DNA of 63,860 bases, filler included, from Lenisia limosa (GCA_001655205.1; 14 parts of 14 records of this genome joined end to end with filler, not necessarily neighbours in it), one strand, 5' to 3'; counted from the first letter of the whole stretch, positions 4,331-63,260 are shown. The notes: generated from the sequence alone by a model not told the origin. Program-made: numbers and translations.

Positions 4331-4449
4331 TGTTGTTATCCTTGTGTGTTGTCACAACGGAGTTGATTTGGGCTTTTTTTGTTTCATAAATTTTAGTACC
4401 TTTACGCCAATATTCTTCATTGAAATTTCCTTCGTTTTACTCCCCCCAG
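4331..4449 (+). repeat. Intron 3'-end module (chimeric family A/B) supplying the acceptor AG
   Basis: tgtgttgtcacaacggagttgatttgggcttttttgtttcataa...agtacctttacgccaatattcttcattgaaatttccttcgttttactccccccag abuts the S45 exon. Confidence 0.85.
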
Positions 4450-5133
4450 ATACACGGCCGACCATGTCGAAGTCGACCGCAGTGTTGAGGGTCTGATCTT
4501 TGGAGGCATGGGCGCTACCACCACGGATGAACTTATGGACAACGTGGGGGGGGGGGTTAATTTTGACGTCTTAAAACCAAATTTCTCTCCATTGTGGTTA
4601 GGGCTTCACTTGGGTTCGGAAAAGACCAGTAAAATAGCGATTTATCGAGAAATTAGTCTCTTTTTGAGGATTTGTCGAGAAATCAGTCTGTTTTTGAAAC
4701 GAAGTGAAGCCCTAATTGTGGTGTTTTTTTGGGTACCAAAAGCAAACCAAGAGGCTCTGTGTCTAAAATGGAATGTATTGTCTTGCACAATAGACCAACT
4801 AACCCCTGCAGCTGAACACTGTGGAATCGCCCACTATGAACATTATTATGGCAGACGCAGAGGGAAACATCGGATTCAAGAGTAGGGACCCTGCTCTATT
4901 TGAGTTTTGTTTTTGTTTAAACTTTTTGTTGGATGTGGATCAAGTTTGTTAAATGATGATTCTGGGGAATTAATCGTTAAGTACTTTTTTTATTATTTCT
5001 AATTCTGACTTCTTTTTTGGGTTCTTGTTGATCCGAGACTAACCATATACAGCAACTGGAGCTCATCCCATCCGTCCAAAGAAGACCAGTGGTGCTATCC
5101 CCCTCCCGGGCACTGGTGAATATGACTGGCAAG
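4450..5133 (+). CDS. Penicillin acylase / acyl-homoserine-lactone acylase family (peptidase S45, Ntn hydrolase), three internal exons of the beta subunit
   Basis: Exons 4450-4543, 4812-4881, 5053-5133 splice in phase to ...GMGATTTDELMDNLNTVESPTMNIIMADAEGNIGFKTTGAHPIRPKKTSGAIPLPGTGEYDWQG, matching the S45 motifs N-x-x-x-AD-x-x-GNIG and P-x-PG-x-x-x-Y-D/E-W-x-G. Confidence 0.8.
4599..4714. mobile_element. hAT-type MITE with perfect 8-bp TSD
   Basis: ATTGTGGT at 4591-4598 and 4715-4722; TIRs TAGGGCTTCAC / GTGAAGCCCTA. Confidence 0.92.
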
Positions 5134-5466
5134 GTGAGGAACTCAAATCAGTATACTCTCGATAATATCTCAATTTGACCCCCCTCCCCCCAAGATACTT
5201 ATATAGTAATATACAAATATATATAATATATACTAGTTGGTAATTTGCTTGGTTGTCTTTGTACAGGCTATTCTGGCGGTATTATAAGCAATAAAATATT
5301 GCTCATAAGTCGGTCCATTTTTGTTGATTTTTGGGCGAATCTGATGTAAAATGGGTCCCTCTACATGATGAGGGGGCGTACCAGGTGGATAGTCGCAATT
5401 TCCGCGAAAGTTTTCGAGATTTCGGAAAAAACTTGCATCGAGAATGAAATAGGGGGTTTGGCTTTC

Positions 5467-5516
5467 GGCTACGGTCATACTCTGGGGGTCATCGCGCATC
5501 CCGTCCGCTCTGCGAA
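5467..5516 (+). rRNA. 5S rRNA, 5' part, truncated by an assembly gap
   Basis: Identical to the first 50 nt of the full copy at 6047. Confidence 0.88.
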
Positions 5517-6046
5517 NNNNNNNNNNGAGCCACAAGGGGGGGGGGGGACTAATAAGCACCATTGGGTAAAAGGAAACACATAAATCAGAATCCGAAAGAA
5601 CATGGCAAGTGCAAACAAAGACGAAATCTCACAATGTGGTGGGTGCATGTGCAAGTAGCCAACTCGCTGCTTGCCCTTTGACAGGCTCTCTTCAGAGGAG
5701 AGGTGGTTTAGTTCCCGAGTATGAAGAGTAGTTCTCCGGGAGCACCGAGGAGGGGGGGAGGTGCTAATAAGCACCATTGCGCAAAAGGAAGCACATAAAT
5801 GTGAATCCGAAAAGGAACATGGAGTGCTGACAAAGACGAAAACGTACACGCTTGGCCAGTGCCTTGGAGTCGAGGAGGGATCTCATGTCCTCTTTGAGGC
5901 AAGGGCAGATTCCTGCTGCCAGGCCTCCTGTGTGACTGAAAAGGGGGGCTTTATTCCTGGACGAGGGTCTGGTGGTGGCAGGAATTTTGAAAAATGCTAT
6001 TTCGAAAAAAACTTGCATCGGAAACGAAATAGGGGTTGTAGCTTTC

Positions 6047-6246: not shown

Positions 6247-7501
6247 TCGCCGCTATGCAGAAGGAAGGTTATTTGCTCCACTAAATTATTTCTAAGAGTT
6301 AAAAATGCGCAATGAAGTTCTTGACTTTTGAAGAAATTGTTTTTGCAGCAAAACTCTTCGATTTAAACACCACCGATCTATTGGTAAATACGCTTACCAT
6401 AGATACACGAAAAAAAACCCGCCCTCTTTTTGGTCATGCAATCCAGTGTTCAAGAGGATTCAAGTCTGATATCATGTATATATACGTAGTTTTATATCAT
6501 ATATAATTATATGTAGCTATATAGTATATATATATATCGATATATTATTTGACAGGAGTTGTATAAACTTGAACTCCTGAATTTCCTGAGATCGTTCGGA
6601 CTTGCTGGAAAATACTGCGGAATTTGGTGATGGCAGATGACGAAAATGTATGGGCCTTTGGCAGACAGCTTGTGACCCTTCCAAAAACTGAAATATTAAG
6701 ATTTTAAAACCAAAATGAACTTCTTACGTGTTGGTGGTCCTCAGCAACGTTAATGATGTGACAAAAGCTATCCTTTCTTCAACTACAGATTAGTTTAAAT
6801 TGGTTTTTGTATCTTACCTAAGATTGACTTCAGTTATTATCTTTATGTTGTGAATTCTTTGGTAAGGCTCATTTGGTTGAATCGGTACCTCGGTTCCAAA
6901 GGCCAAATTGTCAGGAAAACACTCACACTGTGGTGACAGTTCCATCTTTCGCCAATGCCAATAGCCTATGGCCAGACTGAGCAAAAGATCTAAATTTGTC
7001 AACTGCATGTTGCTGTGTAATAACGGCTGAAATGTTTTTCTCCTAAAATTTGGTAAGAAATAATGCAATCAGGACCATCTTTTGAAGCTCTGTGAGCCTG
7101 CAATGTAAAAAAAACTGAATAGTTTCACTGGTTTAAGTAAATATTTTGGCTGGTGGATAGATACATATCATAAACAGCAGTTTAATTTAGATAAATCAAT
7201 ACGTGCGGAACCAAACAGTCATTCAAAAAGGTGTATGATGCTGCCATTAAATTGACAACTCGTTTTCCTTGAAATCCATCTATCACTTCTTCACTACAGC
7301 GGCCTTTATCTTACCTACTAATTAATCAAGCAGGACGTTATTTGCAACTTATGCTTTTTGTTATCGATTATCATTTCATTTATAGTAATAAACTCATATC
7401 ACACCGTTTTTTTGTTTCATAACTTTTCCGATTTTACTCCCCCAGCAGAGTTGAATCTGGGCTTTTTTATCAATGTTCCAGTTTTACCCCCAACTCCCCA
7501 G

Positions 7502-9446: not shown

Positions 9447-12400
9447 GCGGCAGCTTATCTGTAACAGTCGAAGACCGTTTTTTTGGGACCAAGGTGGGGG
9501 GATTGGGGAGGGGGAGGATTGTGAAAGAAAAGGATAATGAGTATTGAGGGTATGGGAGGATTTGACAAGGAATAAGCAAGGGGATTCTCTCACTCTGGAT
9601 TCCTCGTCTTTTCCCTCTTGATTCCTCTTGTCATTTCCCTCTGTATTTCTCTGTTCATTTCCCTCTTAGTTCCTCTTTTCATTTCCCTCTTGGTTGTATC
9701 TCTATTTCATACCTTGGGCGTCACTTCAGTTGGAAAAAGGGAAATATCGACAGTTTTCGAGGATTTATCGAGAAATTCTGTCTTTTTTTGAAACGAAGTG
9801 AAGCCCTACGTGCATCTCTATTTCACTCAAGACTAACACATCACTCTTTCAGAAGCTCTCCGCTTTTCGCTCGGATGACAGTTCTCTCCATTCCATGTGA
9901 GTGTTTCTTCCTTCATCTTGGGAGCATGAAAATAAACATAATTAAATAATTACTTTTGGGTCATTTTCAGACGTGGGATCATAATCCACGTAGTGATAAG
10001 ATTAATCATATTCACTCGTGTGATAATTGACCGACAATTCTCAATAATACGCTGGTGTTATATTTGTTTATCATTTCGACTCAAAAATCGGTCATATTAT
10101 CATACCAATTGGAAATGGGTATTCTTAACCCTTTGTTTATTCTACGATCGCTGTTAAATATTCATTCATTAACCATTGTTTACCCCAAGCATGCAAGTCA
10201 CCTCCCCAAAGCTTTCTTCTAAGATGGCTGACAACATTTCCCTCTATCACCTATCCAGTTGTTGATTTTGGGGTTTCATAAATTTTCCAGTTTCAATCGT
10301 CAGTTCTTCATTCTATGACCCTTCTGATTTTGTTTGTTTTGGATTCATAAATTTTCCAGTTTTACTATTCAGGGCATCATTCTATGACCTCTGTTCGAGC
10401 CTCTCAGTCCCGCTGATTCTCTCTGTCGTTTCTTCTCTTCTCAAAGAAACGGTAAGCTAAGGCCACCCTGGCTAGGGGGAGGGGGGACATAAGTCAACTT
10501 GATGAGAGGGGACTGCAAGGGAGAGGTAAGTCTTAAGTCTTGTCATCACAAGCTTTGGGTGTTCGCAGGCAAGCGCCAATTCAATCATACAGCTATACGA
10601 TACAGTTTTTTAAAAGATGATTCAAGACGAACTCTCCCCACTTACAGAAGCGATATCCGCGGTTAGATTGGAAGCCAGTTCATATTTCAAATCAGTTTTA
10701 ATCTGTTCGGAAATAAAACTGGACTTTGACTTTTTCAAAAGCAAAGTGTACAATAAATTCGAAACCAAGCTTTTGAAACAATCGAACCTGTCTAACTAAG
10801 CATCTAACTAAGCAAACAGTAATTCACTTACATAATCGCATTTAGACAGTTTGTCCACCTGTTCATTGTCTAATAATATGACAACACATCTTCACCTGTC
10901 ATACCAATGTTTCGGATGGTGGTGGCTTTCAGGTTTTGTGAGATCCTTTTCGTCCAATTGGAATTGAAGAGCGTTGAATGATTCCATAATGACGGCGCTT
11001 TTATCGAAAAGAACATTAGCAGGGCAGAAGTTCGAAGTATCAGGCCCAAAGTGAACGTTCTGATAATCAGCAATAAAGTCTACCCCACTTGTCGAGGGGT
11101 ACTTCAGAACCAGTAGTAGCTTTCCTGGTTCCTGCAGCGCAATAGTCCGTTCAGCACACCGTGTCGGGATGCACATCAGAACGTCCTTCATCAAACTTTT
11201 CGAAGGGAATCTTCTTTTCATTGCAGAACTGTGCGAAAAGAACACGTGCAACCGAGCTTGGTTTCCCACCGCCACACTCAAACAAATGAATCTAGTCATT
11301 AAAAAATCCCTGCCCAAAGCTATTATCCTCTCTCGTTACTAAGGGGAGGTGGGGATGAGAACCTACATGAGAATCCTGCTCGATTGTTATCATGACGGTT
11401 GCGCAAGAGTCTAACGGGAATGCAAAGATGGTTGGTTCCTTGATAAAGCCAATTTCATTTCTCCAATAATGTACGTTTTTCAAGGAATTCACAATAAAAT
11501 TAACAAGGATTAATTCCATTCCTGGTAAATCTAGAGGCAGTTAACCTCTTATTTATATACATCTAGCAAAAAACGATTTCATTTCAGACGCATAGTGGTT
11601 GAATATGGGCTTTTGGAGAAGATGTAACCGGCGTTTTGAGTTGAGGTCTTCGTCAACCACAATCATTTCACAATAATATACAGCAACCCACACAAGCTGG
11701 AGGATCTAATAGGCATCCAGACTTGAATTATCAGGCCGCGTATTACACTGCTGAAATTCTGATGTAAATTAATGCTTAAATCTGAGACCCGATCCTTTTC
11801 GCACTCACTTTCTCTTTTTTATACATCCCAGAGTTTCTTAATTTCAAGCCAGTTAATGTTGGTTTCGTACATTTGATGCACTAAATATCAGTATTACTTC
11901 CTTTGTTTCCTTGGTATTAATTTTATTGATAATTTTAAACCCCTTTTTACCACCCAATTTTAACACCTTTTCACCACCCCTCTCCAGCACGTAGTCGTCA
12001 TGTCCGAGTCTCTATCCAAAGTAGTGAACACAGTCCATGCCTTGGCCGCGTGTCTACAACCCTTTTCATGGCAACACATTTTCATCCCAATACTCCCCCC
12101 GAACCTCCACGAATATCTCTCGGCTCCAATGCCATATTTGGTAGGCGGTTATTACTAGGGCTTCACTTCTGTTCGAAAAAATACTTTTCTCGATAAATCT
12201 TCGAAAACTTTGCTGGACTTTTTCGAACCGAAGTAAAGCCCTAGTTATTACTTATGGTTAGGGCTTCACTTCGATTCGAAAAAGACCGGTAAATTATCGA
12301 TAGTTTTCGAGGATTTATCGAGAAATTCAGTTTTTTTCGAACTGAAGGGAAGTCCTACTTATGGTCCCACAAAAAAGACCGAATTTCTCACAATTCCTCG

Positions 12401-12638: not shown

Positions 12639-13243
12639 NNNNNNNNNNNNNNNNNNNNNNNNNNNNNNNNNNNNNNNNNNNNTTAATTAATTAANNNNNN
12701 NNNNNNNNNNNNNNNNNNNNNNNNNNNNNNNNNNNNNNACTGACTGAGCCTTTCTCGATATAGAACCAACCTCCTGAAAGCAGTTGATTGGAAAATCAAA
12801 GCTGGTAAAACCAAAACCGCAGGTTTGACAAAAGTCTGTGAATTAATCCGGCAACACAGAACACTTTTTCACGTCCCCCTTACAAACAATATTCCGTTTT
12901 GTTGTTTTCAACCTTCGTGTGTTGCTATTTAACAGAAATGTTTTTGGGATTTTTTGTTTTATAAATAATATTCCAATTTTACNNNNNNNNNNNNNNNNNN
13001 NNNNNNNNNNNNNNNNNNNNNNNNNNNNNNNNNNNNNNNNNNNNNNNNNNNNNNNNNNNNNNNNNNNNNNNNNNNNNNNNNNNNNNNNNNNNNNNNNNNN
13101 NNNNNNNNNNNNNNNNNNNNNNNNNNNNNNNCAGCCCAGGCTTTGAGGGTATGGGCAATTTATTAATATTTTGATTGATATGGCTTTGAGGGTATTGATA
13201 TGGCTTTGAGGTGAAGGTGGGCTATTCATGTATACAATATATA

Positions 13244-13321: not shown

Positions 13322-13389
13322 TATGGACATGTGGCTTTAAGTCAATCTATATTGCTTTGGGGCTCTAATTCACGAAGGCTCAAATCAGC

Positions 13390-16549: not shown

Positions 16550-18750
16550 CTAGATGGGTATGGCAATCGGTTACAGCCCCAAAAGAGGTCCCAACCGATG
16601 CAGAGGTAAAGAGGGGGGTGGGGTCAATATCGCACCGTAATCATTTTTTAATTCTATCTCTCATAGGTTGATAGTGTCTTTATCTAGAATGTTTATTATC
16701 ATATCATAATTAGAGAATGTTTATTATCATATCATAATTAGGGCTCAGTGCATTTAATTTTTTGAAGAAATTAATTGGAAAATTTTGAAATTCAAGTGTC
16801 TGAAATGGAGTTCCCACGACAATATGGCCCACGTCAAATTTGGCAGCTAATTTTTCAATTAATTGCAAGAAGCCCTAATCATTATACTTCTTGCTCAAAT
16901 AACAAACTTTCATATGTATTTGAACCCTCACCTCAAACTCATCTTTTTTGTTCATTTCTTTCATAAACTAATCACTTTTCCTATTCACTTGTCAGAGTAA
17001 AAAGCGGATAGGTTCGGAAATGTGGATCTATGTTCCAACATTAAAGGTTTGGACTGCTTCCATTAGAGCTTTTCATTTCAAATTTACTATATTAAGAAGT
17101 TTTAAACTTGCCACTTGCAATATCCGGCAGTTTCTCACTTACTTTATTAGGAAGTTTCCGAACAAGTCCTCCAAAACTGTCTTGAGCATATTGGAATGGC
17201 CACTGATGAGGTCATGAGTATAGTTGACTTGAAAGCTCTCATACCAGAACATTGGAANNNNNNNNNNNNNNNNNNNNNNNNNNNNNNNNNNNNNNNNNNN
17301 NNNNNNNNNNNNNNNNNNNNNNNNNNNNNNNNNNNNNNNNNNNNNNNNNNNNNNNNNNNNNNNNNNNNNNNNNNNNNNNNNNNNNNNNNNNNNNNNNNNN
17401 NNNNNNNNNNNNNNNNNNNNNNNNNNNNNNNNNNNNNNNNNNNNNNNNNNNNNNNNNTTATCGCCAGACCCAGATCTCTTAACTCAGCCTTCTTTCTTAC
17501 ACGTCCTTCACATATCTCTTATCTAAGATCCTGTTGATTTCACATCCCTGGGGTTTGTTTTGTTCAACCCTCGTGTGTTGTCCAGGCAAGAGTTTATTTG
17601 GGCTTTTTTGTTTCATAAATTTCCTTCGTTTTACTCTCACCAACATATCAAATTATTCGGCTCATGATTAGTACCTTCACGCCAATAATTTTCATCAAAA
17701 TTTCCTTCGTTTTACTCCCTCAGACGTATCCAGCGTGTTTTTTGGATCAGCAGATCGACGTACTTGTTGATGATTGGGTGGAACATAAAAAGGCAACACG
17801 TGTGCAGTGCCAGGATTGTGCGGTACGTGGGGGAGGGGAGATTATTGTCTATATATAATGAGAAATAAAAAACAAGGTTGTATCTGGCCGAAGCCGGTAT
17901 GTTACAGTGTTCTTCATAAGGAATGTTTCTTCTTACCATATTAGGGAATCCACTTTATGACAGAAACGGGCCTTCCGCCAACAGTTGCCCAAAGTGTTCT
18001 CGGAATGAAGGAATCTCTCAGGAAGGTCCAAATTTTAGTACACGACTTTGGGCAAAAGTCTCAAGAGTGTGTTAGGCTGGGCTTCTCTACTGTCCGAACA
18101 AGTCCGTCAAAATATCGTTATTCAGTGACCGTGATAAGTTTTAACCAATTTCCATTGGGAAATCACACAGCAAATCTGTCAAGACTTATCCCGTTCAGTA
18201 TATTGATGTGTATGTATATATATAACGAGGATTTATCGAGAAATTGAGTCTTTTTATAAACCAAAACAAACCCTAATGATTTTGGNNNNNNNNNNNNNNN
18301 NNNNNNNNNNNNNNNNNNNNNNNNNNNNNNNNNNNNNNNNNNNNNNNNNNNNNNNNNNNNNNNNNNNNNNNNNNNNNNNNNNNNNNNNNNNNNNNNNNNN
18401 NNNNNNNNNNNNNNNNNNNNNNNNNNNNNNNNCACAGCGAGAAGCGGTGAAATATAATAAGCAAGGTAGGTAGCTTACACCCCTACTATTTTATTGCTTA
18501 TTGGATTATTAATATATATATTACTATCAATACTTGGTATTTGATATTCTATGATATCATATGTTGACAAGTATACATATCATGTCATATAATACATGTA
18601 TAATATATGATATATAGTATGTATACTATGATCTTCTAAAGTTATGTAGCTATAAGTAGTGTTACATGTATCTTATCCCCCCCCCCAGGTTCCAAATCTT
18701 TAGCACTCAATATGCTTCGGCGGTCCAAACAGCTCTCCGGTTTGGGGGTT
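16550..18750 (+). CDS. Unidentified multi-exon gene fragment
   Basis: GT-AG bounded exons WVWQSVTAPKEVPTDAE, TYPACFLDQQIDVLVDDWVEHKKATRVQCQDCA, ETGLPPTVAQSVLGMKESLRK, GSKSLALNMLRRSKQLS. Confidence 0.45.
16739..16877. mobile_element. Second hAT-type MITE family (TAGGGCT ends, different interior); partial homolog at about 337-440
   Basis: tagggct...agcccta with atcataat / atcattat flanks (7/8); interior gaagaaattaattg...gtgtctgaaatggagttc shared with 337-440. Confidence 0.78.
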
Positions 18751-19069: not shown

Positions 19070-22000
19070 TTCAGTGTCTGCACGTGGCGCAATTTAGACA
19101 ACGTGCCGTTCAGACTCGAGTTCTCGTTCAATAGTGTGCTGTATATGGTAAGTGGGATGTCTGTATATGGTAAGTTGGGATTATCTGTAGTTGCCCCTCC
19201 CAGTATCTCAGCGTTTTGTTTCTAAGTCAAAACAGTATTTCTTTGTTTGTTTTGTTGTTATCAACCATTGTGTGTTGTCAGTCAACAGAATTGATTTGGG
19301 TTATTTTGTTTCATATATTTTCCAATTNNNNNNNNNNNNNNNNNNNNNNNNNNNNNNNNNNNNNNNNNNNNNNNNNNNNNNNNNNNNNNNNNNNNNNNNN
19401 NNNNNNNNNNNNNNNNNNNNNNNNNNNNNNNNNNNNNNNNNNNNNNNNNNNNNTAAGAACCTTTCTTTCGAATTTGTTTGGAGGGGTATTGCAGGATAGT
19501 TTGTGGATATTTAGACTTTGTGTGCTTTTTTTAAAAAAAGAAAGAAACATATAGCTATATATATACTATATATGTGTATGTGGGGTGTAGTGGGTTGAGT
19601 ATAGGGCTTCACTTCAAAAAAAGACTGCATTTCTCGATAAATCTTCGAAAACTATCGATATTTTACTAGTCTTTTTTGAAGGGCTTCACTTCGGTCCGAA
19701 ACAGCCCGGTACAATATCGTTAGTTTTTGAGAATTATCGAGACAGTCTTTTTTCGAACCGAAGTGAGTACAACACGGCATACTTGCTGACCACTCCAGGA
19801 CGAATCCGATGAAATGACGGTTCATTCCGCGTTCTATTGTATTCAGGCCGTGTCATGGAGTTCTGTCCATAGGTGGGTTGAAGTTCAAAGCCAGGACGAG
19901 TTTTCATGATTCGCTGTGTATGATACTATCACTTGTGGATATGGGTCATCGTCGTTTGGCTAACTTCTCCAGCTATGGAACCGACAAGATTCCCTCAAAC
20001 TACCTCACTGGAACCGCTGCCATTAACGTCTACGCGTGGGGGGGGGGGTATTGTCTTCGGTCCCAAAAAAAGACAGACAAATCCTCGATAAATGTCGATA
20101 TTTTATCGGTCTTTTTAGGAACGTAGGAAGCCCTAATTGTATGCATATATTATAGTAAATCTATGCTTGGGTATTAAAGTATTTATATTTGATGATCGTG
20201 ATTCAGATGGACAAACCTCCTCGTTCTTATTCCTTTACTCATTTTCAAAAAAAAAAAACGTGTTCCCTACATTATCATTTTTTGAAAATGTTAACAAAAC
20301 ACCTCATTTTTTTTAGTCAATCCGGAGCAGCAATGCAAACATTTGCCGTGATGGAGGAAAATGGTGGGGGGTGGTGGTGATGGATGTATGTAGGATCTCT
20401 ATGATCCTAGTTTCAATAAAATTTTACAACAAAATGGCAAAATGATGGTGGCGGGGCCCATCCAGCCAACAGAGTTGATTTGTGCCTTTTTTTTTCATTC
20501 CAATTTTACTCCTCCAGACGACTTCGGCTGTTTCAGCGGCAAAGCCTATGCCGGGGCCATCCCTTCCACCGACTGTACTCCCTATCACAGCGACCTGGGC
20601 ATTGTGGGGGGTTTCTATGATGACTAGGACATTGTCTGTGTGTGTGTGGGTTTATATGTATGTACCTAATTACTTTGTATTTCAAATATATGAAGTGATA
20701 CTTTGTTTGCCAAATAAAAAAGTGGACACGATTTTTTTTTCCCTCACACTGTAGGATGCCCCTGTCGCTAAGACCTTCTTCCTCCATTGTAACACCAAAT
20801 GTATGGGGGGGGGGGGGGNNNNNNNNNNNNNNNNNNNNNNNNNNNNNNNNNNNNNNNNNNNNNNNNNNNNNNNNNNNNNNNNNNNNNNNNNNNNNNNNNN
20901 NNNNNNNNNNNNNNNNNNNNNNNNNNNNNNNNNNNNNNNNNNNNNNNNNNNNNNNNNNNNNNNNNNNNNNNNNNNNNNNNNNNNNNNNNNNNNNNNNNNN
21001 NNNNNNNNNNNNNNNNNNNNNNNNGGGGGGGGGGGAGATTGAGTTTTGAATATTTTGAATATGAATGGTTTTTTGAGATGTTTTTGGGCTTCTCCGATTT
21101 TCGCCTACCATATTTGGGAGGTGGCTACTTGATTAACTTACCATATTAGGTAAGTGGTGACGGTTGCACTCAATTTTGCGAGAAGGAAGTCGGATGGTGG
21201 TGCGCCAATGAGCAAGGCGGAGAATGTGCTGATTTAAAGTGGGTGTAACAAGTGAAGCAACAAGTTTAAAGGGTTACAAAGTGTAACAATTAAAAAATGT
21301 TAACGGTGTCAAGGGTGTAACAAGTGTTGGGTGTAAGTCTGATTTGGTTTTTTTTTTACAAGAGCTGGATTCAGCCAAATACAACCTTGTTTTATTTATC
21401 ATCAATACAATTAGTGTGATGGTGTGGACGGCTTTAGTCAGATACTACCATGTTTTATTGTTATGTTGTAATCTTGATTTAACTATTTAGTGAATGCTGG
21501 GTATGCAATGATCCAGTTGAGCTTCGCGGATCCCCAAAATCAGCCTGTACCAACCCCAACGTCCCCGGTCTTTCCCAAATGGAATGGCTTCGTGGATGTG
21601 GCGACTCAAGCAGCTGTGTTAACAAGGACGAGGGTCGCGGCTACCAGTGCAAAGTTAGAGGTTATGGGTAGGACTTCACTTTGGTTCGAAAAATCCGGCA
21701 ACATATCGATAGTTTTCAAGTCTTTTTTCGAACTGAAGTGAAGCCCTAGTTATGGTGTAAAGTTATGGGGTATTATCAAATGTAATATGTATATATATTT
21801 GTGTTTTTGTCATATGGTGTTTAGCGTTGGTTTTGCTTGTTTTGGTTCGTGAATACCTTTACGCCAATACTCTTCATAGAAATTTCCTTCATTTTACATA
21901 CGCTGGAGTGATGGATGCGTTGTTGCGCCTGGGCTTTGTTTGTNNNNNNNNNNNNNNNNNNNNNNNNNNNNNNNNNNNNNNNNNNNNNNNNNNNNNNNNN

Positions 22001-22196
22001 NNNNNNNNNNNNNNNNACAGAGTTGATTTGGGTTTTTTTTTGTTTCATAATTTTCCTTCATTCACCCCTCCCCCCCAGTGCGAAGAAGGCACGGTCTATG
22101 AGTACTTAGAAGGAGCCGAGTCCTTCACTACACAAACCGTCGATTTGGTGGTTCCTTTGGCTACTTTGGGCGAAAAATTCGGAACCGCCGATCAGG
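19070..22196 (+). CDS. Cysteine-rich extracellular/surface protein fragment (Myxococcus Cys-rich/DUF4215-like repeat plus EGF-like segment)
   Basis: Exons include GDGCTQFCEKEVGWWCANEQGGEC, GCGDSSSCVNKDEGRGYQCK, CEEGTVYEYLEG..., DDFGCFSGKAYAGAIPSTDCTPYHSDLGI; the gene is broken by gaps. Confidence 0.6.
21669..21748. mobile_element. hAT-type MITE, TSD matches 7/8
   Basis: gttatggg / gttatggt flanks. Confidence 0.85.
21908..22078 (+). repeat. Intron 3'-end module family A, from GT to AG (centre in a gap)
   Basis: gtgatggatgcg...ctgggctttgtttgt[N]acagagttgatttggg...ttcacccctccccccag, then exon CEEGTVYEY. Confidence 0.8.
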
Positions 22197-23100
22197 TATG
22201 AAGTGGCACGATTTCCGCGGTTCCCTGATATTATACCTAGGGCTTCACTTCTGTTCGAAAGCGCTAATTGCACCTCAACACCACTTGTCTATCCTAGTAT
22301 TACCCCATCCACATGCATCAATATTTCACTTGGGCGAGGAATACGGGACCTATGAAGCAGCATGAATGACTTCAATACACTTCGGTTCGAAAAAATATTT
22401 TATTTCTCGATAAATCTTAACGGGGTTTTTTTTAGGAACGGTTTTAAGCCCTAAAGCGGGAATTGACGTTATTGATATATTATATTATTATTATAATCCA
22501 GAATCTTTTGTAAGTTCGGCATTTTTTAAATATCATACAGAGTGTATTAAGTACATATATGAATAATGGGTGAACTGAACTGAACTGAAATAACCATAAT
22601 CAATCAAAACTAATCACTTCCAGTCTGCGGCCTATCCGATCCAACCCGCGCTCAACGCCAATGTAAGCTTTTGCGTGAATTGCCTAAATTACGTGATATT
22701 TTTGCGTATTATTTTGGGGTTGACATATGGATATTTTAACGGTCTTTTTCAGACCGTGGGTAGTCTAGTTAGTGGGTTGTCTAGTTAGTGGGTTTTATAA
22801 TTGGAAGGGAGTATTTTCTCATTTGTATGAGCTTAGGCTCCCCTCCCCTCCTTCNNNNNNNNNNNNNNNNNNNNNNNNNNNNNNNNNNNNNNNNNNNNTT
22901 AATTAATTAANNNNNNNNNNNNNNNNNNNNNNNNNNNNNNNNNNNNNNNNNNNNAAAATGGGGAAATTTATGAAACAAAAAAGAGTCCATTATCAAGAGT
23001 AAAATTGAAAAATTGATGAAATAGATGAAGGAAACAATCAAAACATACTTTGTAGTGAACATATCCACACACACCATAATATCATATAATCCCTTCCTAC

Positions 23101-46668: not shown

Positions 46669-53610
<6,942 letters not shown>

Positions 53611-54120: not shown

Positions 54121-54374
54121 GTGGGGGGGACACTCGTGCTCTAGGAGGTANNNNNNNNNNNNNNNNNNNNNNNNNNNNNNNNNNNNNNNNNNNNTTAATT
54201 AATTAANNNNNNNNNNNNNNNNNNNNNNNNNNNNNNNNNNNNNNNNNNNNGGGGGGGGGGGGGTGAAAATGGACAATATATTCAACAAAAACCCCAAAAT
54301 AGAGGCGGGGTGGGGACGAAGGATGGCGTGATTAAATATAATATGATATAAAATGAATATTAGTATACTAACTC

Positions 54375-57296
54375 CTTCAAACCTTCGAGGTTGAAAATGG
54401 CCTCCTTCGGGAGTTGTGGAATCTGAGAAGAGTCAGAAAGAGAGCCTTGGGCATGCGTGTTAGGTATTATAACCTAATAGTATACAAAGTGTCAAAAAAT
54501 ACACACATAAGTGCAGAACATAATGCATAGGGAAATACATTGGTAAAAACAATACAAACAAACTCATTGGGAAATAATATTATAGATACTATTTGTAAAT
54601 TAGCACACAGCGGCACATAATATATCAATGAGAAATAAATAATAAGGTTGTATCTGGTCGAAGCCGTCCACACCTTCAATCAATACATTGGGAATCTAAC
54701 CATACTGCCTTCCAGTCACAAATAGAATATCATAGACAGATGGGAAGTAAAGTATATATATCAATAATCCTTTCTTCTGGTGTCCTTAAAACCCACGTTG
54801 TCATTGGTGCAAATGACAGGATGAAGAGCCTCAACGCCAAGATTGAACGCGGGCGCAGCGTGTTGGCGCGCGGCTGTCAGGAACCCCTGAGCAAAGAAAA
54901 GGGCTCCGATGTTGATAGAGGGTTGCTTGTCTGGGGGGGGGGGGGGNNNNNNNNNNNNNNNNNNNNNNNNNNNNNNNNNNNNNNNNNNNNNNNNNNNNNN
55001 NNNNNNNNNNNNNNNNNNNNNNNNNNNNNNNNNNNNNNNNNNNNNNNACAAGCAAAGCCCAGGTCAGTCACTTCTAAAACACTGTTTCACCTGCATATAA
55101 TATAATACAATACCCCACAACTAAAACACCCAATATTATAGTATAACTATACCCCTCCCACTTTCGACTGCGGCCGCGAAGGCGGTTTCAATTCGGTCGT
55201 GTCGCTTGGCCAGGTCGTGGAACCATTGCGTCATCGTAACGCCTGAAGAGATGACCACAAATGGGAGAGGGGTAAGATTCAGACTAGGATGACACTCTCA
55301 ACCCCACAAATGAGTTTCATTCAGAAAGAACAGCTAAGATAATATGGCCTATTCTATCCCCCCCCCCCAACCGTCCGGGACGGGGTAGGCTTTCCTCCAC
55401 GCTGCAGGGATGGAAGCGGCNNNNNNNNNNNNNNNNNNNNNNNNNNNNNNNNNNNNNNNNNNNNNNNNNNNNNNNNNNNNNNNNNNNNNNNNNNNNNNNN
55501 NNNNNNNNNNNNNNNNNNNNNNNNNNNNNNNNNNNNNNNNCGCACCGTGGCGACAAATGTCCACCACAGCCTTGAGGTCGGCTTGGACTCGTGATACCAG
55601 GGCTATATGCGTCAGAAATCTTACCCATGTCGCGAGAAAGTTCGAAAACTCATTTCAAAAAGTTCGAATAATAATATCATGATGATATGATTTTTAAATA
55701 CAAACATAAGATCGTTGAAATAGCAGGATTCCATTTGTGTATAGCAGACCATTGATCATGGAAACTTCTCTGCGGTAGAAACGGACCAGAGGGGCATGTA
55801 CGCCTGAAGCACTTGCCTACTATNNNNNNNNNNNNNNNNNNNNNNNNNNNNNNNNNNNNNNNNNNNNNNNNNNNNNNNNNNNNNNNNNNNNNNNNNNNNN
55901 NNNNNNNNNNNNNNNNNNNNNNNNNNNNNNNNNNNNNNNNNNNNNNNNNNNNNNNNNNNNNNNNNNNNNNNNNNNNNNNNNNNNNNNNNNNNNNNNNGCA
56001 TCTTCAGAAATCGAACGCATCCACTGGGGGACTGGAGGGAGGGTGAGACTTTGGAATGCGGTAAATTTGAAAATTTATTACACAAAAAAACCCAAATCAA
56101 CTCTATTGGTTGACAATACACAAGGGTTGAAAACAACAAAACAAACAAAGCCCTGGCCATGATATGTGGGGGAGAAATAATTTACGGCCTGGAAGGAAGT
56201 GGGGATGGTGTGAACTACATGTATTGGTGTGAACTACATGTACAGTTACGGGAAGAGTCTTGACCGATTTTGCAAGGAATATTCCATTGCAAATCGGTCA
56301 AGGCTTATCCCGATCACTGTATATCAAGTTGAGATTGCAGAAATAAAAACTCCATTATCTTTTCGCAATTACTCATACCGTCAGTTGACGAGGATTTTTC
56401 TTCGGTTTCGTCCAAGACGTCCGCCTCGCCAGTTGCTTCCTGGGAAGTGAGCAAGGAGGACAACGTATCATGTTATCATCATTTATCAAGGGAGTGGAGA
56501 GCAGACGGGAAACAATACAATCATCACAACTCAGTTTTGTAAAACAGACTTTGTTCTACGAGATTATTTGTAAGAATATTCATAAGCCCCCCACCTCCAA
56601 AGACAAAACGGGAACACTGAGTTTAGCTCGGGCCGCGGCAACATGCGACGCGAGCACGTGTCCGATTGATGCGCTTGTTGCTCGCTCTGCGCTATCGGCC
56701 AAACCCAGCCAGGAAGGCGTCTGAGCTTCGGGTAGATTCTGCGACCACTGCAAGGTGGGTAAGATAGGAAAGTTTATGAAAGAAAAAAGCCCAAATCAAC
56801 TCTATTGGCTGACAACACAGATAACAACAAAACAAACAAAGNNNNNNNNNNNNNNNNNNNNNNNNNNNNNNNNNNNNNNNNNNNNNNNNNNNNNNNNNNN
56901 NNNNNNNNNNNNNNNNNNNNNNNNNNNNNNNNNNNNNNNNNNNNNNNNNNNNNNNNNNNNNNNNNNNNNNNNNNNNNNNNNNNNNNNNNNNNNNNNNNNN
57001 NNNNNNNNNNNNNNNNNNNNNNNNNNNNNNNNNNNNNNNNNNNNNNNNNNNNNNNNNAGGACTCAACGTTGTCGGTTGCCTAATGCGTGAGTTTCCAAAA
57101 AAGGCAGGAGGGCTAACATATGTAGATAAGGCAAGTGGGTTAATAAATCAGGAAAGTACTGAGAAGAAAAATCATGATAATTCCCTCCCAAAAAAAAAGT
57201 CATTGATTTACCCACAGCTGGAGCCAGAGTGAATTGCGGCTCAAAAGCAGCGGTGGTGAAGAGACGGTCCAGGAAGGCATCTAGCACGTTCTGGTC
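54375..57296 (-). CDS. DYNC1H1: Cytoplasmic dynein 1 heavy chain, C-terminal exons
   Basis: Colinear exons DQNVLDAFLDRLFTTAAFEPQF, WSQNLPEAQTPSWLGLADSAER, VPQWMRS, PLVRFYRREV, RVQADLKAVVDIC, IPAAWRKAYPVPDGVTMTQWFHDL, INIGALFFAQGFLTAARQ. Confidence 0.92.
56243..56319. mobile_element. Tc1/mariner-type MITE (77 bp); family also at 13244, 18123, 23715, 58117, 63332
   Basis: TA|CAGT...ACTG|TA with long imperfect TIRs (gtcttgaccgattt / aaatcggtcaaggc). Confidence 0.85.
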
Positions 57297-57542
57297 CTGG
57301 GGGTGTTATATGAGTAAAATAGGAAAATTTATGAAATAACAACAACAACAATAAAAAAGAAGCCCCGACATGACTTGCAAAACNNNNNNNNNNNNNNNNN
57401 NNNNNNNNNNNNNNNNNNNNNNNNNNNTTAATTAATTAANNNNNNNNNNNNNNNNNNNNNNNNNNNNNNNNNNNNNNNNNNNNCACACACAAACCGTCCC
57501 CACTCCCTCCTATAAAAACAAAAAAAAACAGCCCTCCTTTAC

Positions 57543-58894
57543 CAGCTCCGGTTTTGAACCTGAAAGGTGAGTAATATGTTGAAATAAGAAGGAAAACAAA
57601 AAAAAAAGGAGAAGATCCATGTATGAATATATGATGAACCTACTTGAGGAGGGACGGCAAGGTGTATGACGTGCCTTCGGGGAAGATAGCGAAGTGCTTC
57701 TTGTTGTTGAGAAGTTCCAGGGATTCAGCGTAAAGACTGTCGTTGTTGACCTTCTGTTCATCATCTCCTTCTGGCTTGTTAGTGCGTTATTGATTATATT
57801 ATTGTTTTATAACACCAAATAAAAAATTATTTGTGATTGATAACCGTTGTTTTTTTATATTAATATTCTCTTAAAAAAAACCAAAGCTTCACCTTCTCTT
57901 CATTCGTACCCCCACGTTGAAAAAAGGGCCCCCCGACCTTGAAGATCCATTCTTCTCTTCACCGGAACGCTTGACATGCCCTTCAATACCCACCCAGCAA
58001 CTGGAACTTGGAAGAGGCCTGCTTTGGCCCTATTAGGCGGTTAAACATGTTTGATCTTTTCTTTAACTTCCAATAATGCTTTCGCCCAATGTAAGTCATT
58101 GGCATATACATACATACAGTGAACGGGATCAGTATTGACCTATTTTCCATTAAATAATTAGGCAAATCGGTCAAGACTTATTCCGGCCACTGTATTTCCA
58201 TATTTTATTGAGTAGACGCTTTTTTGGCTTGGTAGGATAGCTCAAGGCCATATTTGAAAATTTCCATGTCATAGAAGGAATGCCTGATAAGTATCTAATA
58301 TATGCATAATATATCTTAAATATCAAATGGAGGTGAAGGGGGGAGGAGGTAAAATTGGAATATTTATGAAACAAAAAAGCCCAAATCAGTTGGCTGATAA
58401 CACACGAGGGTTGATAACAACANNNNNNNNNNNNNNNNNNNNNNNNNNNNNNNNNNNNNNNNNNNNNNNNNNNNNNNNNNNNNNNNNNNNNNNNNNNNNN
58501 NNNNNNNNNNNNNNNNNNNNNNNNNNTTATGAAACAAAATAAACCCAAATCAACTCTGTGAGTTGAGCGCTAAAAAAATGTGTATGCATATGTAAATATG
58601 ACGATAAACCCAATTTACGCCCTTTTTCAAAAAATAAAAATAAAAATAGCCTTACCATGATCTCAAGAGGGGACGCATGCTGTGTGTGATGATGTAGCCG
58701 TCAGCGATCATATTACAGTGGTTAGTGATCAAGATTGTCGGTCCTTCAAGAGTATCGGGTCCGCTGCTGGTCATATTGCGGAAGATTGAGCGTGCTCCTA
58801 AGCCCCAAAGATAGACAACGAAGAAGTAAAAGGGGTTGCTTTCCCACTCAGGGAAAAAGAGGTTCACGAAGAACCCCAACGTTTTCTCAATCAT
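57543..58894 (-). CDS. PlsC-family glycerolipid acyltransferase (GPAT-like), N-terminal exons
   Basis: In-phase splice gives GPTILITNHCNMIAD...RSWAKAGLFQVPVAGWVLKGMSSVPVKRRMD...FAIFPEGTSY...LLKFKTGA (motifs NHxxxxD and FPEGT). Confidence 0.88.
58117..58192. mobile_element. Tc1/mariner-type MITE
   Basis: ta|cagtgaacgggat...ttccggccactg|ta. Confidence 0.8.
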
Positions 58895-59199: not shown

Positions 59200-60105
59200 A
59201 GTAATGATATAAGTTGCGCACGCCTGTTGTACGCCATTTTCCGTTCACATTAGCAGGAGCACCGTTAGTTTTCTCCTTCTTCACTGTGGTATGTATGGGG
59301 AGATTGGATTGAAGTTTTTATTAAGATATACTGGGAAGGCACGCAGGAAGATATGCGCACAAAGTTGTGGCAAATGACTGGGTTAATTAATATTATACTA
59401 TCATCCAATATCTTGTGATGGTGTGACGGCTTCGGGATGACCAGCTTTTTTTTATTGGATCCTGTACCTTTTTTACTGCTAGTTTCTTTTTGGCATTGTT
59501 TTCCAACAATTTTTATTTCTGTTTAGCATCCTCTTTGCCTTCATTGTCTCTTTTTGTTACAGATTCTACTCACCATAACCAACAGAGTTGATTTTGGGCT
59601 TTTTTTTGTTTAAATTTTCCAATATTACCCCTCATCCAGAATATCACTTTCTGTGGATGCTTGCTTTTTTTTATTTATTATTAATTTTCCATTTTCACTC
59701 TCAAGTAGCCAACAGCCATGTCCCGGCTAAAGAGCATCATTGAAGCCCTAGTGGGGGGGGGGGATTGTATTTGAATTTTCAGTCTTTAAAGTTTGTATTA
59801 GGGGTAGGGCTTCACGAAAAAAGACTGAATTTCTCGATAATCCTCGAAAACTATCGATATTTTCCCGAACCAAAGTTAAGCCTTATCAGGGGGAGTGGGG
59901 TTAGGGAAGGTTGAATCCCGATTTCGCCAGTATCATGACATGATGGTGGAGAGTGGTTTCTTAAATCCCCTATATTTCGATATATATTTGTGTTTTTGAA
60001 CCAAAGTGAAGCTTAAGTCAGGACCCTGACTTCTCAGAACATGCGAAGGGTGCTGGCGGCAGTGGAGTTTACATGCATCATTATCCTTGTATTAATGGTA
60101 TGCTG
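59200..60105 (+). CDS. Possible small membrane-protein gene fragment
   Basis: Candidate exons MSRLKSIIEAL|gtgggg and NMRRVLAAVEFTCIIILVLM|gtatg; plus-strand intron modules upstream. Confidence 0.3.
59805..59885. mobile_element. hAT-type MITE, diverged
   Basis: tagggcttcac / gttaagcctta. Confidence 0.72.
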
Positions 60106-60679
60106 GGGTCGTGGAGCTTCGCAAGGCCATTGCGTAATCATATTACTTTTTAGATCATTTTCACATGTGTGAACTGGGGGGTTCTAAAGCTTAAGATAGT
60201 GTCAATATTTCTGGGTATTGGGTGTCTCCTTTTTTATTTGAGTTGCATTTATTCATCCATGTAATTGTACAAAATTAGCATTTTTGTTATTATACTGGAA
60301 TAAGCTGGCGAGGCTACTCTTTGAAAAAACGTCCATAGTTGTAAAAATTAACCTTTTATTTTATTCATAAAGATACCACTTTTATTCTTTTTTTTTAAAA
60401 TACAGACGCTGCCACCCCTATTAGATGAGTCCGAAATCTCACCCCCCACCCAGGCAGTCAACANNNNNNNNNNNNNNNNNNNNNNNNNNNNNNNNNNNNN
60501 NNNNNNNTTAATTAATTAANNNNNNNNNNNNNNNNNNNNNNNNNNNNNNNNNNNNNNNNNNNNTTACTAATCACGAACCGAATAATCTGAAACTCAAAAC
60601 AAACAAATAAATTTGGTATGAAATAACACCCAAAATGGCCACAGTGGTGAAACACAATACTGAATAGAAACCCCCCTGC

Positions 60680-60790
60680 CCCGCTTCATTTACATTACTT
60701 ACATTACTGTATATAAGACCCTAGGACCAGACCCGATTCCGCTTCATTTACATTACTGTATATAAGACCCTAGGACCAGACCCGAATCCG
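60680..60790. repeat. Tandem duplication of about 50 bp
   Basis: ccgcttcatttacattac...tgtatataagaccctaggaccagacccga occurs twice. Confidence 0.9.
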
Positions 60791-62439
60791 ACTTAAGAAC
60801 CGAATTTCATTTCAAATCTCCGAACTCCGATTTAGGGATTTTGGAAGGGGTCACTTTCTTAATACCAAAACATCAATTATTTCAACACAAAAATATTGTT
60901 TTACTCATCTGACTTATTTTTGTCTATTTTGGGAGCAAAAACGACCGACCCTTCCACCGAAAAATCCGAATTAGCATTCTGGTCTGGTCCTAATAAGACC
61001 CTTCGCTATAGACCCCCTCACACGCACAACACCCCTCACTTCGCTATAGAAGAACCAGAGCTCTTGGCCGACAACCGAGGTTAAAGCCGACACGTCTGGC
61101 TCTGTGGGGGTAAGATGTAGGGAAGGAATCTGGGTAGTTCGGCGAACTTGGCGTTTACAGCATTAATGTTGGGGAGGAAGACATAGATTCACATAGAGTT
61201 TTAAGGGGGGTGGGGGGTAAAAGAAGGTTATTTCGATGAAGAATATTGGCGTCAATGATCACAAACGGAATAATCTGAAACTCCAAAAAAACAACAACAA
61301 AAAAAAAAATACAAGCAATAAGGTGGGAGGTTAATGACAACTTGGCTTCAGAAAACGGTGATAAGGAAGGATAATTGAGCCGAAATTGGTGTTATAGGAG
61401 GCTAATTGAGGTGATGTTGGCTTATGATTTATGAAGAAAATTCATCAAACTTAATTGCTGAGAACAAGAACCCCTCTCGCCACCAACGAGGGTTGATAAG
61501 CTGTTCTGGTGTAACGGGCGCGGGTTTTACGGGTTTAGGTCGTAGGCAAATGTCCATGGCGAGTGAAGGAAGAACCACTTGTACGTCGCGTGAAGCATAG
61601 GGACTGCGGGGAATCAAATAAATAAAGCAAATTTATAAAATTAATAAATAAAGCGTTTGGGCTTTTTTGTTTCATAATTTCCAATTTTACCCCCCCTCCC
61701 CTGATTTATACCCCCCGGACCGTTTATCAGTGGCAAACACGGGGCTGACCCAGCAGTTGTCCTGTACCACAAACACACGACCATGATTGAGCGAAATGTT
61801 TAGTCCGGCGCCGCAGTCCTGGGGGGTTTTATTATGGGGGTTATCTTATGAGGGTGAAGAGAAGGGAATTTAAGTTACAGGGGAGAAGCAAGGACGGTAT
61901 TAGTTCTGGGGAGGAACGGGAGTGAAAATGGAGGACGAGGAATGAGGTAACGTAGGGGATGACAGCAATAAAGTGGTCTCGTGAAATTGGTGTTTTGAGG
62001 AAGCAAAATTTGAAATGAAAGTTCCTGAAAAAGTTCTCGTTACAGTGTGCTCAATTAATATTCCAATTGCACGAGGTAACGTGAACACCCCCACATTTTG
62101 GATATACTGTAGGTAAGGGTCCAGCGCCGGGATAGCCAGCCAATTTGGAACGGAGGAGTATGCAGGTAGCTCTGAAGAACAGTTAGACTCTTCCTAATAA
62201 GGAAAATAAGGAAGAATATTATAACTGGATATCTGCTGAATTAAAAGAACCTTCCTAAAAAGGAAATGTTTTAAAACAAGAAAACTTACAAATGAATAGA
62301 ATTGTGGGATCATGGAAAACCAAAGTTATCGATGAGCATTTATGTTCATCATTTTGACTCGAAAGACGATCATGTGATCATAAAAAAAAGCATGTAGACC
62401 AACCAACCATACATCTCCATAACCCCCCACCATTGCCAA

Positions 62440-63260
62440 TAACGTTACTGACGGAAACAACTGGCACGTCCACTACCACAGCATGGGCAACATTCCCGTT
62501 GCCGCCGCCACCGTTGCTGTGAATGTGCATGAGAGGCACTATCACGCGGCCGGCGGAGGTCGTAATTCGAGCTCTGGGGGGGGGGTGAACTTGGAAAACT
62601 AATGAAGTGAAAAAAAGAAAGAAAAAAAAGCCCAAAATCAATTCTGGGTGCAAGAATAGAATACCCAGACACCCCCACCTCATATTCCTTTGGTCATGAC
62701 TCGCAACCTGGCTGTACCCCCAGGATTCAATCCAGGTTTTAACAGCCATCCGCACTCGCGGCCCGGGGTCCAGATTATCCCTTTCGGGGACTGAGGGCGA
62801 AAGGACCCGGGGCGACTCAAACTCGAGAAGTTTTGAAAGTTCTTTCGGAAGAGACGAATTTGGTGTAATGGAGCGTTGTGGCGTGGACGCAAGACTGTGT
62901 GATGACGTCATGGTTTCATTGGTCCGGCTCGGGATTGTGGGGTGCTGTGGGGGAGAGAAGCCCCATGACGGTTGGAAGGCCGTGACGGTACGGGGAAGAG
63001 CAACCTGCGGGGGAAATAAAAAAGGACAATTTAAGTTATTATGATAGTGGGGCCCCCGGGGGGTGGGTGTAAAAATGGAATATTTATGCAAATAAAAAAC
63101 AATACAAAAAACAAAAACTCTGTAGAAAAACGAGGGCTGAAAACAACAAACAAAATAACTCGAAAAAAACCCGCCTGTTGTAACCTAGCATCACCCTGCC
63201 CACTTGCATCCTGGCATCGCACCAAGAGGACACCACATGAGGGTCAATCACCATTGTGAA
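62440..63260 (-). CDS. Hypothetical gene, internal exons
   Basis: Exon 63004-62700 VALPRTVTAFQPSWG...PRVRMAVKTWIESWGYSQ is bounded by AG/GT; the neighbouring exon frame is ambiguous. Confidence 0.4.

Follow-up and report, generated by a model that had tools for sequence, protein, structure and literature searches.

A dispersed repeat lying mostly in sense orientation near intron acceptors in Lenisia limosa

In the host organism, an intron-rich, single-celled eukaryote, copies of one repeat lie at intron 3' ends; the question is whether this repeat created the introns, as introners do, or landed at acceptors that were already there. To our knowledge, known intronic repeats avoid splice signals, lean antisense, or constitute whole introns. 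The window, i.e. the whole stretch of Lenisia limosa DNA analysed here (63,860 nt), consists of 14 scaffolds joined through 100-N linkers.

A repeat family with two subfamilies

A profile made from the copies in the window (thresholds: at least 9.5 bits for module A, at least 11 bits for module B) gave 35 matches in two subfamilies, 28 of module A and 7 of module B; 20 shuffles peaked at 7.6 bits and the reversed window at 5.7 bits. Since about ten weaker fragments were recognised by eye in addition, the estimate of 35-40 dispersed copies made in an earlier note on this DNA is fair. Read depth suggests thousands of copies in the organism. The full unit (≈130 nt) is a 5' piece (U) followed by module A and reaches about 35 nt further 5' than the consensus previously taken for the whole unit, while module B has a separate middle and the same 3' end as A. 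At 17620 and 22055 the A and B 3' ends are swapped. The copies are as follows.

1748..1804, minus: module A with an internal deletion; modelled acceptor 1716 lies 32 nt beyond its end (profile)
4331..4449, plus: module A, then B 3' part; acceptor 4449, putative S45-like gene assigned by a motif (profile and open chain)
7406..7501, plus: two A 3' fragments in tandem; acceptor 7501 in frame, AG 7445 resembling an acceptor but out of frame
10222..10372, plus: inverted 12-nt fragment and two A 3' fragments; 13-nt duplication into exon; acceptor 10372, DENN
12894..12982, plus: module A; gap at 3' flank; host unknown
17545..17723, plus: A then B; 3' end repeated directly, 20 nt; acceptor 17723
19234..19327, plus: module A; gap at 3' flank
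20463..20517, plus: A, 5'-truncated; AG 20517
21791..22078, plus: B, then U (full-length 5' piece) with A, head to tail; acceptor 22078
22955..22983, minus: A 3' fragment at scaffold end, FHA gene
23372..23424, minus: A, 5'-truncated; acceptor 23372 in FHA frame
23803..23890, minus: module A, mid-intron, acceptor 435 nt away
25473..25510, minus: U/A copy, deleted; acceptor 25473
26599..26691, minus: module A; AG 26599
26922..26942, plus: B-type 3' end at scaffold start; AG 26942
28773..28904, plus: diverged U with A; donor 16 nt before, acceptor 28985 82 nt after; PAP2
29345..29465, plus: U with A; acceptor 29465, PAP2
29955..30299, plus: U, then gap; acceptor region duplicated (15 nt) at flanks
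31210..31311, plus: inverted A-like end, B end, start of U with A; no assigned host
34430..34451, plus: A fragment ahead of gap, 8.3 bits
48474..48527, plus: B 3' fragment and C-run; SERCA intron starting 48445
49049..49229, plus: 5'-truncated B flanked by two 15-nt copies of the branch-point segment; acceptor 49229, RNA-supported
50349..50462, plus: full-length U with A and C-run; SERCA intron starting 50316; missing from RNA contig
50846..50878, plus: B-end remnant; TAG skipped, 50927 used in RNA
54251..54299, minus: A 3' fragment and C-run, scaffold end, dynein
54931..55092, minus: start of U with A, gap, C-run; acceptor 54931 supported by RNA, in which an inner CAG near 55091 is passed over
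56059..56158, minus: best-conserved copy, module A (90/98 nt match); modelled acceptor 56032 29 nt on
56748..56841, minus: module A; acceptor 56748
57297..57360, minus: degenerate A end; acceptor 57297, separate branch-point-like site
58348..58569, minus: two A copies, mid-intron, acyltransferase; ≈320 nt from acceptor; C-run without AG
59577..59708, plus: two tandem A ends; uncertain host gene
60564..60662, minus: module B, scaffold end
61209..61328, minus: module B, mid-intron; C-run without AG
61656..61700, plus: A 3' fragment lying antisense to its host intron, 61604-61711 on the minus strand; the C-run reads there as a G-run 11 nt behind the donor; without AG
62574..62646, minus: A, 5'-truncated; acceptor 62574
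63068..63199, minus: diverged U with A; 64 nt ahead of acceptor 63005

The 5' ends of copies were scattered over reference positions 0-104 of 127 and most 3' ends lay at 113-127: 5' truncation is frequent and the 3' end is kept intact. Identity was independent of truncation (rho 0.10, P 0.64, n = 26). Partial copies stand head to tail at 7406, 17545, 21791, 31245 and L104 and at joints in DNA contigs, with TTTTAC-to-U junctions at 31260, 21898, L104 and in DNA contigs; many DNA contigs have loose ends, where agreement is lost just 5' of U and a C-run directly follows the 3' end. Flanking duplications of at least 11 nt (11-20 nt) occurred at 5/29 loci (null 14/807, with 5 overlapping pairs left out), not consistently, and the repeat has neither terminal inverted repeats nor a fixed target site duplication (TSD). 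A 5-bp inverted repeat, CTGGG/CCCAG, was rejected: the CTGGG of the first consensus lies inside the full unit. No terminal direct repeat was evident in 12 full-length 5' ends. Searching the 5' flanks for inverted copies, we found 4/30 with scores of at least 20 (null 2.6%), and a 12/12 match at 10222.

Five folds of the repeat gave no structure signal (z -1.3 to +0.8). An Rfam scan at gathering scores, which was the scan that covered U, found no family over the repeat (sole match: a separate 5S gene), and two A copies scanned at E up to 10 gave no credible match; a structured RNA or snoRNA was rejected on these grounds. These scans thus gave no sign of the tRNA-, 5S- or 7SL-derived head, with Pol III boxes, that a SINE would have, the 5' piece U being covered at gathering scores and module A more loosely. 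An exact 23-nt motif had no match among the metagenome and viral contigs searched, and occurred at three loci in the genome contigs searched.

Orientation, position and use of the acceptors

Host genes were recognised from single-exon Pfam matches to PAP2, SERCA, FHA, Dynein_C, DENN and acyltransferase (7/35 pieces), among which only DENN exceeds the curated cut-off; one further DUF matched at E 0.13. Single SERCA exons used as protein queries gave no match. Sense orientation was found for 31/32 matches having a host strand and, in homology-anchored genes, for 15/15 introns (P 6e-5; two of these are assigned through the S45 motif). Among intron-terminal sense copies, 16/23 end at most 17 nt from the acceptor, compared with ≈10% expected under a uniform distribution, and the remaining 7 lie 29-320 nt away. 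Not all copies are at an acceptor, as these 7/23 show, nor are all sense: copy 61656-61700 (+) is antisense, its host strand being read from codon usage and an open chain of six exons. MITEs showed no such positional bias, as had been stated: 0/8 gap-free copies lie within 20 nt of an acceptor (row 2124 being measured against acceptor 2092).

Thirteen AGs had been listed as in-frame acceptors. All 13 are AG dinucleotides behind a module, and stop-free exon chains run through 11 of them (4449, 10372, 17723, 22078, 29465, 49229, 23372, 25473, 56748, 57297 and 62574); AG 20517 has no fixed frame, and the scaffold of AG 26599 contains no exon upstream of it. An RNA contig piece begins at 49228, supporting acceptor 49229, and an RNA contig joint supports acceptor 54931, outside that list. 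Removal of the element from mRNA was seen at three SERCA/dynein introns (49229, 54931 and 50316-50578). Of the 13 listed sites, 49229, 56748 and 57297 were compared with RNA contigs; the latter two, like 56032, had no cover.

Copies terminate in TTTTAC followed by a C-run. Off-acceptor copies, the antisense one included, keep TTTTAC and the C-run and mostly lack AG, which is found after a copy mainly where an exon comes next; it is therefore doubtful that the AG is part of the element, as had been assumed. On the other hand, acceptor tails are near-identical, of the TCCCCCCAG type, in about 7/17 cases, which could mean that the AG moves along with the element. The spacing of TTTAC from AG, described earlier as that of ordinary branch points, proved similar yet longer: 8-16 nt between branch point and AG in element introns vs 7-10 nt in 29/31 ordinary ones (P 6e-5). 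TTTAC is a minority branch-point type among the introns here.

TNAC-plus-pyrimidine sites were occupied at 11/25 acceptors, 8/54 other sense positions and 1/21 antisense positions, a comparison that is partly circular. Plain C-run targeting is insufficient, because in the hosts C-runs of at least 6 number 33 in antisense and 29 in sense, the antisense ones being almost unused, and ordinary acceptors have a C-run of 5 in just 1/31; the C-run may be brought along by the element. Pairing of a G-run with the C-run end was also rejected, G-runs showing, by inspection, no evident enrichment in element introns.

Landing at acceptors versus creation of introns

In 22/22 element-bearing introns (a count that leaves out one row, L107), 16-2272 nt of unrelated intron sequence precede the copy, and the best anchored match of intron starts to the element's 5' end is 7/14 nt. 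Because 0/22 begin with the element, the introner option of the earlier note is not supported; of the introner traits, coding-strand orientation and removal at GT/AG were found here, splice boundaries at both edges were not. Its other option, insertion at acceptors already present with the element always spliced out, fits because of the sense bias, the 3' ends at acceptors and the two RNA-used AGs.

With moderate confidence we favour a non-autonomous retroposon whose probable insertion sites are branch-point/C-run stretches in introns already present; the host AG would stay in use there. Its TTTTAC end would act as a branch point or adjoin one. A reverse transcriptase borrowed from another element would copy it via RNA, starting at the 3' end, with priming where the TTTTAC-plus-C end matches a TNAC-C site; such a site occurs ≈8 nt ahead of most acceptors here and would also be offered by the end of every older copy. 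Added Cs would widen the gap between branch point and AG, ordinarily 7-10 nt, to 8-16 nt. Insertions would be tolerated since they are spliced out, and antisense ones (46-53% A on that strand) may mostly be lost by selection, unless a transcribed-strand bias operates. Points against this retroposon reading are that no autonomous partner and no empty site were seen and that duplications occur at 5/29 loci only.

More tentatively, and with rather low confidence, the splicing machinery or a branch-point mark may serve as the targeting device, the element having used its end to rebuild 3' splice sites in thousands of introns; this safe haven would be distinct from introners, and the element may be a former intron now mobile as RNA. 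Any family concentrated in sense orientation on branch point and acceptor would represent a new safe-haven strategy and a wholesale turnover of 3' splice sites that leaves the mRNA unchanged. It would also provide thousands of natural sites for testing guidance of insertion by reverse splicing or branch-point recognition, a matter still debated in intron evolution.

Reverse splicing has been proposed for coding-strand introners (PMC4540971; PMC11146597). For the present repeat, we consider it unlikely that a former intron became attached by partial reverse splicing to the first nucleotides of exons, in mRNA or in the DNA of R-loops, and was then copied beginning at the 3' end, replacing or extending existing acceptors. 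Such spliceosome-guided replacement would account for sense orientation and precise 3' position without selection. The full length to AG (≈140 nt) lies within the ordinary intron range of 32-413 nt, and skipped, old acceptor-like AGs directly precede some copies (55091; 29979). On this reading the full-length unit opens with a GT-bearing, donor-like motif and closes with branch point and AG. However, the antisense copy at 61656 cannot arise in this way, AG is predicted on all copies and is mostly missing from those off acceptors, and whole-intron copies number 0/22. Nor do copies each stand behind an old acceptor AG: at 5' junctions AG is not enriched (12/34 vs 13.6 expected; YAG 9 vs 7.0).

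Quite improbably, the repeat helps expanded introns to be spliced, having been spread and made uniform through unequal exchange or gene conversion and maintained by selection rather than by transposition. The element does occur in long introns and is rare in short ones (5 loci around 32 SERCA introns; 29/31 element-free reference introns are <180 nt), and its 3' segment is locally duplicated. Yet TTTAC is of a minority branch-point type, the remnant 50846-50878 is skipped in RNA, the folds carry no signal, long introns without the element are also spliced (413 and 374 nt), and staggered truncation with tandems resembles insertion. Still somewhat less credit goes to a DNA copy-and-paste element of the HUH class, akin to Replitrons or Helitrons, whose target motif depends on orientation. 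The exchanged A/B 3' ends would suit it, and Replitron-1 is described as lacking TIRs, with TSDs variable or absent and with 3' ends that may include flanking sequence of the parent copy (PMC10288648); against it, truncation is one-sided (5'), there is neither a terminal direct repeat nor a significant hairpin, and no Rep partner was seen.

Least probable of all is an ageing introner family whose members created introns and then had their 5' parts decayed or interrupted: first 16 nt slightly nearer the element (4.5 vs 3.7 of 14 in ordinary introns, P 0.025), possible remnants directly behind the donors 28757 and L104:5081, and SERCA introns shared with other eukaryotes in 0/3 element-bearing vs 8/29 element-free cases (P 0.55; compared with 12-13 other loci) speak for it, but copies 90-100% identical to the consensus stand behind wholly unrelated 5' sequence, 21/29 element-free SERCA introns are also unshared, and a vertebrate ATP2A1 intron presumably shares codon and phase with 48445.

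Copies outside the window and known elements

A bacterial MAG with mis-binned eukaryotic contigs (G001) showed the same pattern as the window. Its loci are independent of those in the window, and 8 of them score at least 14 bits and show their 3' end: 5 terminate at most 22 nt from a YAG and open frame, another 2 stop 58-95 nt short of one, and L105 is at no acceptor. No autonomous partner was found in G001, both reverse transcriptases there being bacterial, and no empty site was seen for the L105 copy among related transposase copies, nor elsewhere.

In the open-access main texts searched, no element with this acceptor and sense bias was found. The repeat resembles non-autonomous Penelope-like elements (Chlamys/MRC1 type) in its frequent 5' truncation, head-to-tail partial tandems, hardly visible TSDs, assembly breaks at copies and perhaps (C)n bias; for Penelope-like elements, too, truncation, partial tandems and (C)n bias without clear TSD are described (PMC8557442). 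The (C)n trait is seen here as a C-run behind most copies, with antisense C-runs almost unused and ordinary acceptors without runs, and inverted 5' copies of the Penelope-like type only weakly. Unlike those elements, the repeat was found without an RT/GIY-YIG partner, and it has branch-point, acceptor and sense biases that the available part of the Penelope-like description does not mention (PMC8557442).

Like introners (Micromonas IEs, fungal ILEs and Symbiodinium types), the repeat is high-copy, short and non-coding, has coding-strand orientation, contains splice signals or lies next to them, and is removed by splicing; introners, however, are whole introns with the donor at the element edge or TSD, whereas the repeat is a 3' part only (PMC9860276, PMC4540971, PMC11282704). 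Many introner families, though not all, have TIRs and a fixed TSD.

Insertion at a gene landmark, limiting damage in a gene-dense genome, is shared with Dictyostelium TRE5-A near tRNA genes; here the landmark would be the branch point or acceptor of thousands of introns (PMC3159450). Antisense Alu likewise contributes 3' splice-site signals, while the acceptors at which the present repeat lies are constitutive and the mRNA is unaltered (PMC5115870).

Two further cases serve as background. R2 and spliced-leader elements insert repeatedly at a defined gene landmark, and antisense Alu supplies a polypyrimidine tract and AG and makes new exons from mid-intron positions.

Extent and anatomy of the repeat

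Profile searches of the window yielded 28 matches to module A and 7 to module B of the repeat, against a maximum of 7.6 bits in shuffled sequence. The repeat is real and longer than the earlier note described: in full-length copies a 35-nt 5' piece (U) lies in front of A, the loose ends of DNA contigs lose agreement just 5' of U, and in these contigs a C-run immediately follows the 3' TTTTAC. Because U precedes A and agreement is lost only 5' of U, the CTGGG at the start of the original consensus is an internal motif and not an inverted terminus. Summed contig depth was 136,876 at 56122 and 66,856 at 49185 (background 21-45); these sums are not themselves copy numbers, and suggest a few thousand copies for either one (3,500-6,500 and 1,700-3,200, respectively). 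Element-matching RNA contigs of other loci were shallow (depth 2-25). A folding test revealed no fold signal for the element, and an Rfam scan no family.

The 5' ends of copies were staggered and the 3' ends constant, and truncated copies were as well conserved as long ones. Tandem joints directly after TTTTAC occurred in DNA contigs and at two loci, 31260 and L104 (the latter in the bacterial MAG G001), which are independent and differ in their upstream partner; it is as though a new copy had taken the end of an older one as its target. These features speak for insertion from the 3' end. Direct repeats of 11-20 nt were found at 5 of 29 loci and none at the other 24; in four of the five, the repeat covers the segment ending at a branch-point-like AC or at the acceptor.

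Copies in relation to splice acceptors

The window comprises 14 scaffolds (1.2-17.8 kb each) joined by 13 spacers of 100 N with a six-frame-stop linker (2739-60563); the scaffolds are unrelated, and neighbourhood across linkers is meaningless. Extra gaps lie inside scaffolds, and many of them coincide with the repeat or with G/C runs. The organism is intron-rich, with at least 32 introns in its SERCA gene, and the spliced aligner recovered 14/14 gap-free RNA-defined introns. In 29 of 31 ordinary introns (46669-53610) a branch-point-like NTNAY stands 7-10 nt before the final G, a nearly fixed spacing that resembles the fused branch point and acceptor of metamonads in the available text of PMC6679479. 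One modelled intron measures just 32 nt (46989-47020).

Among matches with an assignable host, 31/32 were in sense orientation (26612 placed by hand, 3 host-less matches omitted), as were all 15 element-bearing introns in homology-anchored genes (P = 6e-5). Anchoring was by Pfam matches, plus one putative S45 gene assigned by a motif. A single copy, at 61656-61700, is antisense. Its host intron, 108 nt long, belongs to an open chain of six exons on the minus strand; the exons on either side have their best score on that strand, and the C-run of the copy is the G-run 11 nt behind the donor. The earlier note has the copies form intron 3' ends: among the 23 sense copies that are intron-terminal, 16 stop 7-17 nt short of the acceptor and 7 stop 29-320 nt short of it. 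Uniform placement would put approximately 10% within 20 nt. In agreement with the reported lack of positional bias in MITEs, no gap-free MITE copy lay within 20 nt of any acceptor.

RNA contigs, compared for two window scaffolds, supported use of the AG at 49229, where a contig piece begins at 49228. Acceptor 54931 was supported by a joint in an RNA contig, and the A-bearing stretch after 50316 was missing from mRNA. RNA skips the TAG at 50878 (a B remnant) and the CAG near 55091.

The distance from TTTAC to AG, described as that of ordinary introns, is similar but longer (8-16 nt). C-runs of at least 5 marked 10/16 element acceptors versus 1/31 ordinary ones. That the terminal AG belongs to the element is doubtful. 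Copies off acceptors mostly carry the C-run without AG, several tails are host-like, and some (57297, 56032, 28985) have a separate branch-point-like site; against host-derived tails count the near-identical tails at approximately 7 of 17 acceptors and the complete, out-of-frame acceptor-like end at 7445. Local duplications including the acceptor, sometimes with the first exon bases (10253-10400, 29955-30310, 7406-7501), leave acceptor-like AGs upstream of the in-frame AG.

The exact 23-nt motif was also found in G001, which provides an independent replicate. Its motif-bearing contigs share the window's MITEs and introns but are not window loci; they are mis-binned DNA from the same eukaryote or one very close to it. 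Eight matches there score at least 14 bits and have a visible 3' end. Five of these stop no more than 22 nt from a YAG that leads into an open frame, 2 precede such a YAG by 58-95 nt, and one (L105) does not sit at an acceptor and runs opposite to a DDE_1 ORF 350 nt off. Host strand was mostly read from open frames, making this weaker evidence on strand. Eukaryotic intron-bearing contigs in G001 (C39, C43, C60, C67, C69, C71, C72; loci L083, L104-L107, L109, L111), on which the repeat families of the window recur, are reference-genome contamination. They include a multi-copy, apparently intron-containing DDE_1 (pogo-like) transposase family (L105:234-1109, L083:1184-1936, L106:2208-3098).

Intron age and possible mechanisms

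Introners, in the available text of PMC9860276, carry both splice sites or recruit them at the element's edges. Here, in contrast, all 22 element-bearing introns open with 16-2272 nt unrelated to the element, and the repeat is not an introner as defined, contrary to one option of the earlier note. Anchored match to the element start was 4.5/14 in element introns, where it never exceeded 7/14, and 3.7/14 in ordinary introns (n = 38; P = 0.025); G-rich donors could account for this small excess. Element-like pieces close behind donors 28757 and L104:5081 could be decayed whole copies. In a comparison of SERCA with 16 other eukaryotic loci, 8/32 introns had an exact counterpart in position, against 0.46 expected: 0/3 element-bearing and 8/29 element-free (P = 0.55, with three element-bearing introns only). 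The ancient intron 51004-51416 holds another repeat, so old introns here accept insertions.

We favour, as an even call, a non-autonomous retroposon-like element. Its insertion would be primed at TNAC-C sites, which would concentrate at branch points, and most antisense copies would be lost or selected against or arise less often; A makes up 46-53% of the antisense strand. Targeting of C-runs by itself does not suffice, since such runs are as common in antisense as in sense (33 vs 29). In its set of traits the element, a candidate member, matches Penelope-like elements as the available text of PMC8557442 describes them; no autonomous partner was found among the G001 reverse transcriptases. A bolder reading, a mobile element targeted through the splicing machinery or its branch-point mark, is possible but doubtful. 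Spliceosome-guided acceptor replacement accounts directly for strand and position, and reverse splicing has been proposed for coding-strand introners (available texts of PMC4540971 and PMC11146597); however, it leaves the antisense copy and the missing AGs unexplained, and the old AG it predicts at 5' junctions was not enriched. We consider it unlikely. A selected splicing module is improbable, a HUH-type element (as in the available text of PMC10288648) slightly more so, and an ageing introner the least probable. Searches of the literature turned up no element confined to intron 3' ends in sense orientation.

Other repeats and genes

Further features of the window
54620-54690, 696, 7795, 17856, 21401, 26240, 32127, 34157, 59403 (both orientations): family C, very high-copy repeat, bin depth 64,523
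2124, 4599, 12259 and others: ~100-bp MITE
56242, 13241 and others: palindromic element
51080, 32010 and others: repeat family E
6047-6165: 5S rRNA gene (Rfam, 73.5 bits)
15470-16230 and 10892-11335, minus strand: intronic antisense ORF remnants, no Pfam match
38300-44560: many-exon armadillo-repeat gene, partly covered by RNA contigs

Family C lies in its hosts once in sense and three times in antisense, and matches RNA contigs of depth up to 52. Several of the MITEs follow a donor at a distance of 15-60 nt. A partial second 5S copy (approximately 5467-5516) lies in a duplicated unit within an intron. The ORF remnant at 15470-16230 runs up to an AAT repeat and might represent a retroelement in decay. 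The armadillo-repeat gene presumably resembles an outer dynein arm docking protein, which suggests a flagellate.
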